A stretch of DNA of 30,585 bases from a virus. Taxonomy: Duplodnaviria; Heunggongvirae; Uroviricota; Caudoviricetes. This document shows, piece after piece, positions 1,806 to 7,069 of this stretch. Both the position numbers and the translations under genes were made by a program. Every line of letters begins with the position of its first letter. Position 1 is the first letter of the stretch. The stretch is taken from the IMG/VR virus record IMGVR_UViG_2728369593_000008, positions 1 to 30,585 of that record; one strand, 5' to 3'. Under the pieces are notes generated by a model. That model ran no database searches, was not told the DNA's origin, and worked only from the letters and a program-made list of their open reading frames with translations.

Positions 1806-2558
1806 ATGAACCTTGAAGCCTTACCAAAATATTACTCCCCGAAATCTCCAAAACTGAGCGATGACGCACCGGCGACAGGCTCTGGTGGTTTAACGATTAC
1901 GGATGTGATGGCTGCGCAGGGGATGGTGCAGTCGAAAGCACCACTGGGTTTTGCCTTATTCCTGGCAAAAGTTGGTGTTCAGGATCCTCAGTTTGCGATT
2001 GAAGGTCTGCTCAATTACGCGATGGCACTGGATAACCCGACATTGAATAAATTGAGTGAAGAAACCCGGTTACAGATCATTCCTTACCTTGTGAATTTTG
2101 CCTTTGCTGATTATTCCAGGTCTGCGGCAAGTAAGGCTCGCTGTGAGCATTGTGCTGGTACTGGATTTCATAATGTATTGCGCGAAGTGGTGAAACACTC
2201 CAGAAGCGGGGAATCTGTTATCAAGGAAGAGTGGGTAAAGGAACTGTGTCAGCATTGCCATGGTAAGGGAGAAGTCAGCACAGCGTGCAGAGGGTGTAAG
2301 GGTAAAGGTATTGTCCTGGATGAACAAAGAACCCGGCTTCATGGCACGCCTGTTTATAAGACTTGTGGGCGTTGCAATGGAAACCGGTTTAGCCGTTTAC
2401 CGACTACACTGGCACGACGTCATGTCCAGAAGCTGGTTCCAGACCTGACTGATTATCAGTGGTACAAAGGATATGCAGACGTAATTGATAAACTAGTAAC
2501 AAAGTGCTGGCAGGAAGAAGCATATGCTGAAACACAATTGAGAAAGGTGACGAGATAA
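1806..2558 (+). CDS. Late-gene antitermination protein Q (long, Qin-prophage QuuQ-like type)
   Basis: Several CxxC pairs (CEHCAGTG, CQHCHGKG, CRGCKGKG, CGRCNG) typical of the phage Q family; position just upstream of the lysis cassette. ATG at 1806 is preceded by GGAG; the longer ORF begins at 1764. Confidence 0.7.
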   Translation: MNLEALPKYYSPKSPKLSDDAPATGSGGLTITDVMAAQGMVQSKAPLGFALFLAKVGVQDPQFAIEGLLNYAMALDNPTLNKLSEETRLQIIPYLVNFAFADYSRSAASKARCEHCAGTGFHNVLREVVKHSRSGESVIKEEWVKELCQHCHGKGEVSTACRGCKGKGIVLDEQRTRLHGTPVYKTCGRCNGNRFSRLPTTLARRHVQKLVPDLTDYQWYKGYADVIDKLVTKCWQEEAYAETQLRKVTR

Positions 2559-3126
2559 GTGATTTTCGCCGAAGATAGCGACATGAAGCTTGCATTTTTC
2601 AAAAAATATGGATAAGATTTTCTCAACGATGGGCTTTGTATGTCTGCCGTTGAGAATCTTCAAGAACCCGCCATCAAGTAGGTATTTTGTTATCCAAATA
2701 TCAGTTCTGAATAGTCTTAGTAGCTTCTTGATAAACATAAAAAAGTACTTGCTTTGAATGGCCGCCTTTTAGACAGGGCAGAGAGTACGATTGGTTGAAA
2801 AAAGCATAGTTCTTGGCGGTAGGTTTTATTTTAGTCTCTCATCTATGTATCTAGGGAAGTATGTGATTACCTTCAGGAATTATATCCTGTGTTTCATATG
2901 ATTACATGGGAGCAAGGGACGCCAACTTTATAACAATTCTTATGCCCAGCCACTATATATAGATAAAAAAAATCCGCATCATCCCGTATATTGTTTTTGA
3001 TTTCTTTTTGCTATATATGTTGTGTTTTTTATGCCTTTATTGCATATGTGATTAATGTGCTTGTTGTTATATTCAATACGATGCCAAGGGATTTGGGACG
3101 TGTATATCCAATAAATTGGCAGATTT
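2559..3126 (+). promoter_or_regulatory. ~570-bp AT-rich non-coding region downstream of Q; expected site of the late promoter/qut element and/or a promoter for the cargo cassette
   Basis: No convincing ORF; candidate -35/-10 pair TTGCAT-17 bp-TAAGAT near 2591-2619; inverted repeat CTCAACG/CGTTGAG at 2622-2654; A/T tracts and TATATA runs throughout. Confidence 0.3.
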
Positions 3127-3153
3127 TTGTTAATTACTTGGGTAGCGTATTGT

Positions 3154-3594
3154 ATGACTAAAAATGCACAGCAGGTTCTTGAAGACTCTGCCCAACAGAT
3201 TTTTCCCGATTATTTTCCTGCAGATGTTCCTCCAAAAGAGTCCTTGGATGCTGAAGGGGTTTTTTATCGCTTAGCCAGAAATAATCCACCTGGGAAAGCT
3301 TGTTTTTTAAACATGAAAGAAGAAAACCCAAAAAGAATGAAAAAGTTCCAAGGGTTACAATTGAAATGCTGCTATGGTGTTTCTATGTTCATGGACGAAA
3401 CATCACTGGTAAATGTATTTAATAAATTTCCTGAAGGAATAGGTGAAAGGTTTATTGCTAAAGGCGAGTTGAATCCACAGGATGGAAGAATGCTAAAAAC
3501 AGGAGCTCCTGATTCGACTCATTTTACCATTTGGCTTTGTAAAGATGCTCGAGTTCATGAAAAATTCACCTGTATAAGAGAGGTGGTTAGATGA
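3154..3594 (+). CDS. Hypothetical protein, cargo gene A of the Q-to-holin cassette (no recognisable family)
   Basis: ORF 3127..3594 with first ATG at 3154; visibly AT-rich and rich in Lys/Asn/Phe; stop overlaps the start of the next gene (ATGA at 3591-3594). Confidence 0.55.
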   Translation: MTKNAQQVLEDSAQQIFPDYFPADVPPKESLDAEGVFYRLARNNPPGKACFLNMKEENPKRMKKFQGLQLKCCYGVSMFMDETSLVNVFNKFPEGIGERFIAKGELNPQDGRMLKTGAPDSTHFTIWLCKDARVHEKFTCIREVVR

Positions 3595-4880
3595 GCAATA
3601 TTTTTTTGGAAGATAGTGTGTTCGGCACATTATATATGCAAAAAATTTATGAGTTCTTCGAAGAGCCAAAACTTTTCTCTGTGTCTAATGAAATAAATAG
3701 CATGTTTGTTGTCTATTGGATTGGCGACGAAGAAGATTATGATAAATGGATTATCATACCGATTTCAAAAGATAGGTTGGAGCACTTCGAGCGTAAAAGA
3801 ATTGATATTAGAAGTGTTTTAGTGTATCAAGAACAAAAGCTTTGCTATCAGTTTAATATTTACTATGAAGATAATCATGTTGATGAAATAAAAATAAATG
3901 TTTCTGAGTTAAATGAGAAGATAAAAATTCCAGAACCTAACTTATATATTAGTAGTGTTCTTCCTGTATTACCTAATGGTAAAATTGGAAAGGAGGTGGA
4001 ATTCTCTACGCATGAGATTCATGTGGAGAAAACAGCAACTTCTGTGGAACCCTTGGTTTTAAAAGGCGTCTCGAAGCTTTTTGAGTGTTTTAATGATTTC
4101 TATTCATCAATATTAGCTGCATTTGATGAAAAAGATGTAATGAGTCCAGTATCTGGACGTCCTGGTTCATTTGTTCTTTCATTCAAGGCAGATAAAATGC
4201 AGCAAATTGAACCATTGCTGAAAAAACTAAATGAGCTGATTCTATCAAGAAAAGATATTATTGGTTTTGTTAAACAGAATAATATCGATGTTCAGATGTT
4301 ATCTGCTTTATTTGAAAGTGTGATAGAGACAAGTTCATGTTTTGAACTAAAAAGTAATGTGACTGATGATGTTATTCTTAGAGTCAGAAAAACTGATGCT
4401 GAGTTCTATTCTGGCACATTGATTAAAATGGCTACTCAAGTTGTTAGTAGTTATCAGGTACCGCAGGCTAACCTAATTGAACAAGTGTTTAAGATAGTTG
4501 AATTAAAATGGCAAGAGAAGCATCTGAACCTGATTAGTACTGGTCTGGATAATCGACATATATTGTATTATATTCATGCGGCCAAAATACTTGGGTTACT
4601 AAATAGTAATGGTTCTGTTTCAGCTCTTGGTCAGCAATTGGTTGAATCTGACTATGATAAGAGACTAAGAATCGCTGCACGCGGTTTTGAAACAAGTCAT
4701 TGCGGGTGGGCGTGGATTACCTGGAGTCAAGCTAAAAATCTTTCTGAGCTCGATCCACTTACAGCTGAACGATTTTTGCAAGATAGATGTATATCTCTCA
4801 GCTCCAAAACAATAAAGAGAAGGGCTTCTACTTTAAGGCAGTGGTGTGAAAAATTGCAACCTGCTTATCAGGAGCTCTGA
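3591..4880 (+). CDS. Hypothetical 429-aa protein, cargo gene B (no recognisable family)
   Basis: Long uninterrupted AT-rich ORF; GAGGTGG RBS about 6 nt upstream of the ATG; translationally coupled to gene A; followed by two hairpins. Confidence 0.65.
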   Translation: MSNIFLEDSVFGTLYMQKIYEFFEEPKLFSVSNEINSMFVVYWIGDEEDYDKWIIIPISKDRLEHFERKRIDIRSVLVYQEQKLCYQFNIYYEDNHVDEIKINVSELNEKIKIPEPNLYISSVLPVLPNGKIGKEVEFSTHEIHVEKTATSVEPLVLKGVSKLFECFNDFYSSILAAFDEKDVMSPVSGRPGSFVLSFKADKMQQIEPLLKKLNELILSRKDIIGFVKQNNIDVQMLSALFESVIETSSCFELKSNVTDDVILRVRKTDAEFYSGTLIKMATQVVSSYQVPQANLIEQVFKIVELKWQEKHLNLISTGLDNRHILYYIHAAKILGLLNSNGSVSALGQQLVESDYDKRLRIAARGFETSHCGWAWITWSQAKNLSELDPLTAERFLQDRCISLSSKTIKRRASTLRQWCEKLQPAYQEL

Positions 4881-4953: not shown

Positions 4954-4980
4954 AAAAGGCTCGCACAGGCGAGCCTTTTC
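4954..4980 (+). terminator. Rho-independent terminator after the cargo cassette (A-tract upstream, so possibly bidirectional)
   Basis: AAAAGGCTCGC-ACAG-GCGAGCCTTTTCC: 7-bp GC-rich stem, 4-nt loop, T-run. A second AT-rich hairpin (11-bp stem ATTATCTTCTT/AAGAAGATAAT) lies at 4892-4918. Confidence 0.6.
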
Positions 4981-6252: not shown

Positions 6253-6388
6253 AACACCGATTCCAGTTGTACCTAGTCCACTGACATATGGTGCTAGCTT
6301 GGAACTGAATGCGAGTTTGTTATCTGCATTAGCGCAATGCAATAGAGATAAAAAGGATATTCTAAAAATAGGATATCAAAATGAATAA
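6137..6388 (+). CDS. Rz1: Rz1-type o-spanin lipoprotein (overlapped architecture)
   Basis: Begins in the +1 frame inside Rz with MMIVLHVLFLLPLLTGC (lipobox LLTGC); proline-rich mature part; extends past the Rz stop. Confidence 0.7.
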   Translation: MMIVLHVLFLLPLLTGCGSTRTVYVNTPAVPLPASLTSETPIPVVPSPLTYGASLELNASLLSALAQCNRDKKDILKIGYQNE

Positions 6389-6454
6389 ATATTTTCCGGA
6401 AAATGATTATAACTGTGCTATAAATATAATCACCAAATAATATAAAGGTGAGTT

Positions 6455-6964
6455 ATGGAAAGGTTTATAAAATCAATTGAATCTTCAATTGAAAGTGAGA
6501 ATTGGTTAGCGGCATTGTTTATGGCTCTTGCTATGCCTGATATTTGCAGGAGCGTTGAACGTCCCAAAATAGGTAAGGGTGAAACAGGGAAATGGTATAA
6601 AGATTGGGTTTCTCGTTATCTTGAAAATAAATATACATCCGGTACACATGAACAGTGTCGATTTTATGCGGATGATTTTTGGCTGTATCGTTGTTCTTGT
6701 TTACATGCTGGACAGGATCCAGAGAACAGGAAAAGAATGATGCAGTTTAATTTTACACCACCACCTAGGCAAAATTGCCAAGTGCATTTAAATCACTTAA
6801 ATGGCAAACTTCAGTTGCAAATAGATGTGTTTTGTCGAGACATGATTGAGGCAGTCAATCAATGGCGTACTGAGGTCGAGGATACGCCAGAAATTAAGGC
6901 TCGTATGGATTCTCTGATAAATATATCATTAGCATCTTTTGGAACATTCATTTCATTTGGTTAA
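6455..6964 (+). CDS. Hypothetical 169-aa protein, AT-rich moron between lysis and packaging genes (no recognisable family)
   Basis: Isolated ORF with AAAGGTGAG RBS, a candidate extended -10 (TGCTATAAA near 6416-6424) upstream and a hairpin downstream; AT-rich compared with flanking genes. Confidence 0.6.
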   Translation: MERFIKSIESSIESENWLAALFMALAMPDICRSVERPKIGKGETGKWYKDWVSRYLENKYTSGTHEQCRFYADDFWLYRCSCLHAGQDPENRKRMMQFNFTPPPRQNCQVHLNHLNGKLQLQIDVFCRDMIEAVNQWRTEVEDTPEIKARMDSLINISLASFGTFISFG

Positions 6965-6971
6965 ATATATT

Positions 6972-7015
6972 AATGAAGTGAATTTTACAGTGGGTACTAA
7001 AAGGTTCACTTCATT
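6972..7015 (+). terminator. Hairpin / putative terminator after the 6455..6964 moron
   Basis: 11-bp inverted repeat AATGAAGTGAA (6972-6982) / TTCACTTCATT (7005-7015); the loop is long, so stability is uncertain. Confidence 0.35.
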
Positions 7016-7069
7016 TAATGATTTCCCTAAAACAAATTTTTTTAGAGGAAACTATTTAGGACATTAATA

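Follow-up and report, generated by a model that had tools for sequence, protein, structure and literature searches.

Gene order and composition of the region

The stretch of DNA analyzed here in its entirety (the window, 30,585 nucleotides of the IMG/VR virus record IMGVR_UViG_2728369593_000008) belongs to a lambdoid prophage and finds a 100% match in Escherichia coli strain 998. The study concerns the non-coding gap between the antiterminator gene Q (1806-2558) and a cargo of two genes, A (3154-3594) and B (3591-4880), which are followed by the genes for holin, endolysin and Rz; features lie on the plus strand unless stated otherwise. The start of gene A at ATG 3154 is the PGAP call and the point at which the N-termini of the orthologues align, and the alternative start TTG 3127 was rejected on these grounds. 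Since Q ends at 2558 and TTG 3127 is not the start of gene A, the gap extends from 2559 to 3153. A preliminary description of the sequence had presented it as a non-coding, AT-rich leader of about 570 bp; its character was rightly recognized, whereas its length has to be corrected to 595 bp. The gap is a composite of a late control module, a spacer and a leader that belongs to the cargo.

The lack of any credible open reading frame (ORF), as first described, was borne out by a search in all six frames, in which the longest stop-free stretch reached 70 aa and no Pfam or PHROG matches were obtained; genes for tRNA or tmRNA were found nowhere in the window. The G+C content of the gap is 0.35, compared with 0.47-0.59 in the upstream phage genes and about 0.5-0.59 in the flanks. 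Low values (0.27-0.42) extend from 2560 to about 5060 and hence across the entire cargo, so that low G+C is a trait of the cassette (the cargo with its leader and terminator) and not of the leader alone. On account of this AT-rich composition a silencing of the region by H-NS is plausible. The A/T features noted earlier are present, namely the TATATA runs CTATATATAG (2953-2962) and GCTATATATG (3010-3019) and an A8 tract (2965-2972), and the reported inverted repeat is perfect, with 9-bp arms at 2620-2628 and 2648-2656. Promoter-like hexamers, which had also been claimed, are not enriched: a consensus scan of 2300-3400 returned one site, located outside the region, compared with 3.5 +/- 1.6 in shuffled sequences. 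The two promoters proposed below consequently rest on comparison with related sequences and not on hexamer scores.

The late control module and its terminator

The Q gene, annotated by PGAP, codes for a protein of 250 aa with matches to Pfam PF03589 (5e-54) and PF00684, which is 35% identical to Q of phage lambda (BLASTP, E 1e-43). It carries an insertion of 48 aa with CxxCxGxG zinc-finger repeats, matching the DnaJ central domain, at the position of the zinc ribbon of lambda Q. A Q cassette is composed of the Q gene, the late promoter PR', a pause element whose role has been described, the Q-binding element and a terminator (PMC9388147).

Counterparts of these parts lie within the first ~130 bp after Q, in a late control module at 2588-2690. 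Its predicted PR'-like promoter (2590-2618) has a -35 hexamer TTGCAT (2590-2595), a 17-nt spacer and a -10 hexamer TAAGAT (2613-2618), and transcription is predicted to start at about 2625/2626. The stretch 2588-2640 can be aligned to PR' of lambda together with the pause element, the window sequence GGATAAGATTTTCTCAACGATGGGC corresponding to GGGTAAATTTGACTCAACGATGGGT in lambda. At the sequence level the sigma-70-dependent pause element AACGATGGG (2625-2633) is identical to that of lambda, as is CAACGATGGG to the respective part of lambda PR'; the pause element was also detected in the related loci L014 and L018. The spacer 2596-2612, as candidate Q-binding element, is conserved among phages of the SfV type in a sequence unlike that of lambda. 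The transcribed part of the inverted repeat (2620-2656) folds as a small leader hairpin (2625-2651), which is predicted alike in the window, SfV and ATCC 11775.

Seven relatives, among them SfV, Ayreon, ATCC 11775, 720R4 and F1055, have the module in nearly invariant form despite a variable end of Q, and it was found in 2,457 of 5,426 complete E. coli genomes. Judged by this homology, 2588-2690 is a lambda-type late control module with a presumably active promoter. In Salmonella phage F1055 (locus L007) the first annotated ORF after Q (2709-3782 of that locus) begins inside the conserved PR' leader and gave a spurious protein-level match to 2608-2691 of the window; its annotated start is probably wrong.

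In the relatives the leader ends about 40-65 nt after the transcription start at AACCCGCC-N5-6-GCGGGTTTTTTT, the terminator tR', also written AACCCGCC-N5-6-GCGGGTTTTT and listed as a terminator in the annotations of SfV and Ayreon. The corresponding site of the window (2665-2689) is degenerate: the left arm AACCCGCC is intact and the remainder reads ATCAAGTAGGTATTTTG, with a right arm of GTAGGT in place of GCGGGT and a broken U tract (ATTTTG). Accordingly, the hairpin reaches -2.2 kcal/mol in the window versus -8.7 to -13.0 kcal/mol in 11 relatives, and the fold of the whole leader -11.5 kcal/mol versus -21.8 and -21.3 kcal/mol in two of them. Of the parts that define a lambda-type Q cassette, an intact terminator to close the short PR' transcript is thus lacking here. 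The defect is common to all 11 members of the window's lineage, homology to other phages stops exactly at tR', and the junction sequence formed there occurs only together with this cargo. No remnants of the proteins that follow tR' in related phages were detected in the region, and two separate scans of the plus strand from 2690 to 3153 revealed no canonical terminator. A second lineage (L014/L015) possesses PR' of the same type, with tR' entirely missing ahead of the cargo leader.

From these sequence differences tR' is judged to be inactivated in this prophage lineage. With tR' dead, read-through from PR' becomes probable, and PR' transcripts probably run through the cargo to the terminator at 4954-4980.

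The cargo and its leader

Genes A and B overlap by the ATGA at 3591-3594. Gene A matches the PADLOC model PD-T4-10_A (PDLC04023, 2.9e-10) and gene B PD-T4-10_B (PDLC04024, 9.8e-8), with a DUF6575 match in gene B (7.8e-37). In the parts consulted of its description, PD-T4-10 is an abortive infection system of a toxin (B) and an antitoxin (A), the prototype of which protects against T-even phages and the antitoxin of which cannot be deleted (Vassallo et al., 2022; PMC9519451). The cargo is, by these matches, a PD-T4-10-like toxin-antitoxin defence pair, while toxicity, neutralization and protection are known for the prototype only. Because antitoxin A of the prototype cannot be deleted, the pair should need to be expressed in the lysogen.

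Relatives of the cargo were gathered from IMG/VR, genomes, metagenomes and assemblies and yielded 16 distinct leader variants, the A proteins of which are 47-74% identical; genome and metagenome scans contributed few extra loci. The DNA at ~2946-3153, above all 3062-3123, is conserved before diverged copies of the cargo, some of which do not adjoin Q. Together with the lambda-like segment 2588-2640 this confirms the earlier expectation that a late promoter with a Q-utilization site is combined here with regulatory DNA brought in by the cargo. All 16 variants share the same succession of TGnTATATT, 7-8 nt, ATGCC(A)A, an interior of 26-51 nt and (U)UGGCAG, with the parts located at 3065-3073, 3081-3087 and 3116-3122 in the window. 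The first of them, TGTTATATT, is a predicted extended -10 element, from which transcription is predicted to begin at G3080 or A3081; TG and TATATT are the same in every variant, and only the degenerate middle base differs (T/C/A). The motif was also found at loci not adjoining Q, beside an AAA_13 gene in L071 and a TIR gene in L076, and is absent from a Proteus-type sub-branch. A covariance model of it (R1) gave one match per cargo locus and none elsewhere in 198 kb, which included the rest of the window and cargo-free relatives.

At most Q-linked cargo loci the cargo leader is preceded by an intact tR' at a distance of 25-110 nt, so that a cassette expressed in the lysogen must have a promoter of its own. 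Its conservation suggests that the extended -10 element is this promoter, active from the predicted start. A sigma-54 promoter, for which TTGGCAG could be taken, was rejected by eye, as no conserved -12 element follows. The distal leader (2946-3061), with weakly conserved TATAT boxes at 2953-2962, 2984-2993 and 3010-3019, is alignable with a subset of the diverged loci and absent from L078, L071 and L072, where a terminator is situated ~60-95 nt before the -10 element. For the PD-T4-10-like family the conserved leader motif (extended -10, ATGCCAA...TTGGCAG) is new; it is missing from those passages of PMC9519451 that a term search brought up.

The cargo is closed by a strong intrinsic terminator at 4954-4980 (-17.6 kcal/mol, z -5.3, reached by 0 of 200 shuffles), which we propose as a stand-in for tR', and a comparable one stands shortly after gene B in 13 of 13 loci examined. 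The cargo with its leader is present in three of the 2,457 E. coli genomes that have this Q/PR' module. Because it combines its own promoter motif, genes and its own terminator, the cassette is regarded as a moron, a promoter-genes-terminator unit inside the late operon, with the promoter as predicted above.

The slot between PR' and the lysis genes is the stx site of Shiga toxin phages. The same cassette was encountered directly after Q genes of PF03589 and of PF06323 with different types of PR' (L069 from Hafnia, L072, L077, L078 and L018-L024), and also outside prophage late regions, adjoining AAA_13 or TIR genes. The position behind Q seems to be one where the defence cassette lands repeatedly, and that it recurs immediately behind Q genes belonging to two or more Pfam families is a new finding. 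A second island of low G+C (0.28-0.41) follows Rz/Rz1 at 6300-7050 and contains the gene of a hypothetical protein (~6493-7047); in the related prophage of NZ_LR882050 the equivalent slot is occupied by a gene for a GrlR-family regulator, and the island is probably another exchangeable cargo slot.

Folding of the cargo leader

The conserved 5' element of the leader (3081-3128) starts with ATGCCAA (3081-3087), of which UGCCAA (3082-3087) pairs with UUGGCA (3116-3121); an invariant G and a U run (3124-3128) follow. In all 16 variants 1-2 nt separate the stem from the predicted 5' end, and in 15 of them the isolated segment folds with this closing stem. In the alignment of the stem 88% of the cells are paired, and one pair occurs as AU 12 times and once each as CG, GU and UA. 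The role of the stem-loop might lie in stabilization of the mRNA or in translational control, as opposed to that of an operator. Occlusion of the ribosome-binding site by the leader was considered as a family-wide feature and is unsupported (mean z -0.34).

In the window's clade a second hairpin is predicted at 3098-3148 (-14.8 kcal/mol). It uses the 3' arm of the stem, which pairs with the downstream UUGUUAAUU, and covers the weak Shine-Dalgarno region, UAUCCAA pairing with the Shine-Dalgarno-like UUGGGUA; relative to L014, L076 and L078 it shows one exchange of A.U to G.C. In a second clade (L016, L018) a corresponding helix, CUUAYU/ARUAAG, surrounds the UUGGCAG element. If formed, such alternative helices would allow a pseudoknot or a two-state switch.

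The PR' leader at 2653-2671 (AGAATCTTCAAGAACCCGC), immediately ahead of the dead terminator, is complementary at 17 of 19 positions to 3171-3189 (GCAGGTTCTTGAAGACTCT), codons 6-12 of gene A, 499 nt downstream on the same strand. This value was reached by none of 300 shuffles, and ten other cargo loci attained 13-15 of 19. An ungapped test was used for these comparisons, since duplex folding of the PR' leader against the cargo mRNA produced long internal loops and was uninformative. The complementarity could reflect pairing within a PR' read-through transcript or be the trace of a recombination event.

Interpretation and alternative explanations

The reading we prefer, with a probability of roughly 0.6, is that of a self-contained moron with a promoter of its own, inserted behind a late promoter whose terminator tR' is dead and is substituted by the terminator of the cassette. 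In the lysogen the cassette would be transcribed from its extended -10 promoter into an mRNA beginning at ~3080/3081, at the conserved stem-loop and ~73 nt before gene A. The PR' promoter of lambda needs no Q and runs constitutively. If the same applies to the window, as the analogy with lambda suggests, Q-independent read-through from PR' would also transcribe the spacer and the cassette, since tR' is dead. Both classes of transcripts would stop at 4954-4980, the terminator of the cassette doing the work of tR' and keeping the lysis genes silent, until after induction Q-modified polymerase would read through everything. The decay of tR' in the window's lineage and its absence in L014/L015 fit the view that the cassette terminator has made tR' dispensable.

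Several points weigh against this interpretation. Both promoters are deduced from sequence, and both the PR'-like promoter and the -10 element of the cargo are missed by a simple -35/-10 consensus scan. The stem-loop is supported mostly by invariant bases; its covariation is weak, with 20 of 500 shuffles reaching the observed score, and single-sequence folding energies of the leader stem are no better than those of shuffles. An AT-rich orphan spacer of ~255 bp (2691-2945), 43% of the region, is part of neither the late module nor the cargo leader and is not accounted for by this reading: DNA relatives were found neither in E. coli genomes, plasmids and phages, nor in neighbouring phages, nor elsewhere in the window; exact-word scans of IMG/VR recovered it in only eight contigs, all of the same lineage; no ORF match to Pfam or PHROG indicates coding; and no fold signal appeared on either strand (z-scores -1.25, +1.0 and +1.9). 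Finally, a weak terminator-like hairpin at 2874-2889 is followed by TGTTTCAT, the leader stem (3082-3121) with the subsequent GAUUUUUG is itself terminator-like (-9.7 kcal/mol), and Rho or H-NS could also stop PR' transcripts within an untranslated stretch of 530 nt. Because such weak hairpins remain and because of Rho and H-NS, read-through from PR' into the cargo is no more than probable.

These last points lead to the most serious competitor, which is possible and clearly less probable than the moron with its substituted terminator: PR' transcripts still stop before the cargo, be it at the residual hairpin 2665-2689, at hairpins of the spacer, at the leader stem with its U run or through Rho or H-NS, the cargo uses its own promoter only and the decay of tR' is inconsequential. 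The untranslated 530 nt with 35% G+C that such transcripts would have to pass agree with it, as does the fact that most cargo-bearing phages keep an intact tR', because of which the cargo would have no need of read-through. However, the residual tR' hairpin, whose U tract is broken up, amounts to just -2.2 kcal/mol, the remaining hairpins combine low stability with large loops and do not surpass shuffled sequences, and G exceeds C throughout 2500-3200, which from general knowledge of rut sites should be unfavourable for the loading of Rho. In addition, the second lineage without any tR' suggests that its loss is tolerated since the terminator after the cargo takes over.

Somewhat more doubtful is an explanation at the level of DNA, in which the TGCCAA...TTGGCA repeat and the TATAT boxes are operators, to which the antitoxin, alone or complexed with the toxin, would bind and thereby exert autoregulation in the manner of classical type II systems. 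It would suit a system that behaves as a toxin-antitoxin pair, as PD-T4-10 does in the consulted parts of PMC9519451, and would account for both stem arms being conserved in sequence and not only in pairing, as well as for the unexceptional folding energies of the leader. A spacing of the arms that ranges from 26 to 51 nt is, however, hard to fit to a fixed dimeric site, the G.U pair in L078 and the U.G pair in L036 fit RNA and not DNA symmetry, L061 has a compensatory C-G pair, and no DNA-binding domain is recognizable in the A protein in Pfam. Lineage-specific palindromes do occur upstream of the -10 element in several loci, but they are absent in L054, L061 and L064, and a conserved palindromic operator at this place was rejected as inconsistent between lineages. 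Variable spacing and G.U pairs thus favour an RNA element over a DNA operator.

A more far-reaching version of the moron reading, which we consider improbable, is that the loss of tR' has rewired late control. The constitutive, Q-independent PR' transcript, corresponding to 6S RNA of lambda, would then include the defence operon, with the cassette terminator as the new tR', and mRNAs derived from PR' and from the cassette may also be translated differentially. As only the long PR' transcript contains 2653-2671, its complementarity to codons 6-12 of the antitoxin gene may contribute to such a difference, and the 5' stem together with the hairpin 3098-3148 could act as a two-state switch on the ribosome-binding site of the antitoxin. 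If true, the balance between antitoxin and toxin in an abortive infection system would be tied to the late promoter of a prophage.

It is very improbable that a small RNA or protein is encoded in the region itself: stop-free stretches of up to 70 aa, a mini-ORF (ATG-CCN) that begins at the predicted transcript start and varies in its third codon base, and a minus-strand hairpin (2788-2745) followed by a run of T stand against spacer folds with z-scores of -1.25 to +1.9, the missing Pfam and PHROG matches and a spacer without relatives that could show conservation. The leaderless mini-ORF was rejected: its length is not constant (4 to more than 26 codons), and the conserved GGAYUG motif next to it lies in different frames in different lineages. 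Nothing supports the small RNA that the preliminary description had allowed for, since an Rfam covariance-model search of 2300-3400 (E up to 10) returned matches at chance level only (best scores 22.6 bits versus a threshold of 70 and 18.5 versus 90, all E >= 1.5); the sole short RNA to be expected, the PR'-to-tR' transcript of the relatives, has by its sequence lost its terminator in the window.

If the cassette is a moron with a terminator that replaces tR', the general picture of Q antitermination and of morons remains unchanged. The slot between Q and the lysis genes hosts Shiga toxin and, here, defence cassettes, which raises the practical question of how cargo is expressed in a quiet prophage without leaking into the lysis genes. 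The locus suggests a solution: the cargo brings promoter and terminator, and the tR' of the phage may decay or be deleted, as in two lineages, with the cargo terminator protecting the lysis genes. The conserved leader motif, in turn, offers a testable handle on the regulation of a little-studied family of toxin-antitoxin defence systems.

Comparison with known systems

Each component of the locus is of a known kind: a lambda-type Q cassette, a moron and a PD-T4-10-like system. New is a Q cassette that departs from its type in its own terminator.

Stem-loops at the 5' terminus of the ompA type stabilize mRNAs of E. coli. The cargo leader resembles them in that its stem begins 1-2 nt from the predicted 5' end in the 16 variants. 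It differs in its short stem of 6-8 bp, which encloses a large interior, in a start site that is a predicted one, and in two arms whose sequence is conserved beyond the needs of a purely structural role.

Morons were reportedly described by Hendrix and colleagues as promoter-gene-terminator units of lambdoid phages, such as bor and lom of lambda. The cassette agrees with them in its deviant composition, its presence/absence polymorphism, its own promoter motif and its own terminator. Unlike these, it is placed directly between PR' and the lysis genes, and in the window's lineage it does not lie downstream of tR', which it has displaced or replaced.

With PD-T4-10, as far as presented in the consulted parts of its description (Vassallo et al., 2022; PMC9519451), the cargo shares two overlapping ORFs, the matches to the A antitoxin and to the B toxin with DUF6575, and the location in a prophage, whereas it matches the PADLOC models only distantly (E 1e-10 and 1e-7).

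The closest comparison is that with the late cassette of lambda. Common to both are a Q homologue directly upstream, a promoter, predicted in the window, at the same relative position and the identical CAACGATGGG, and the window's phage relatives close the short PR' transcript with an intrinsic terminator as lambda does. In contrast to lambda, Q of the window has an additional zinc-finger segment of 48 aa, the sequence at the spacer of lambda's Q-binding element differs, and the leader of the relatives comprises ~65 nt compared with 194 nt in lambda (6S RNA). Above all, the terminator of the window is degenerate, and hence the first strong terminator is found 2.3 kb downstream, after the cargo.

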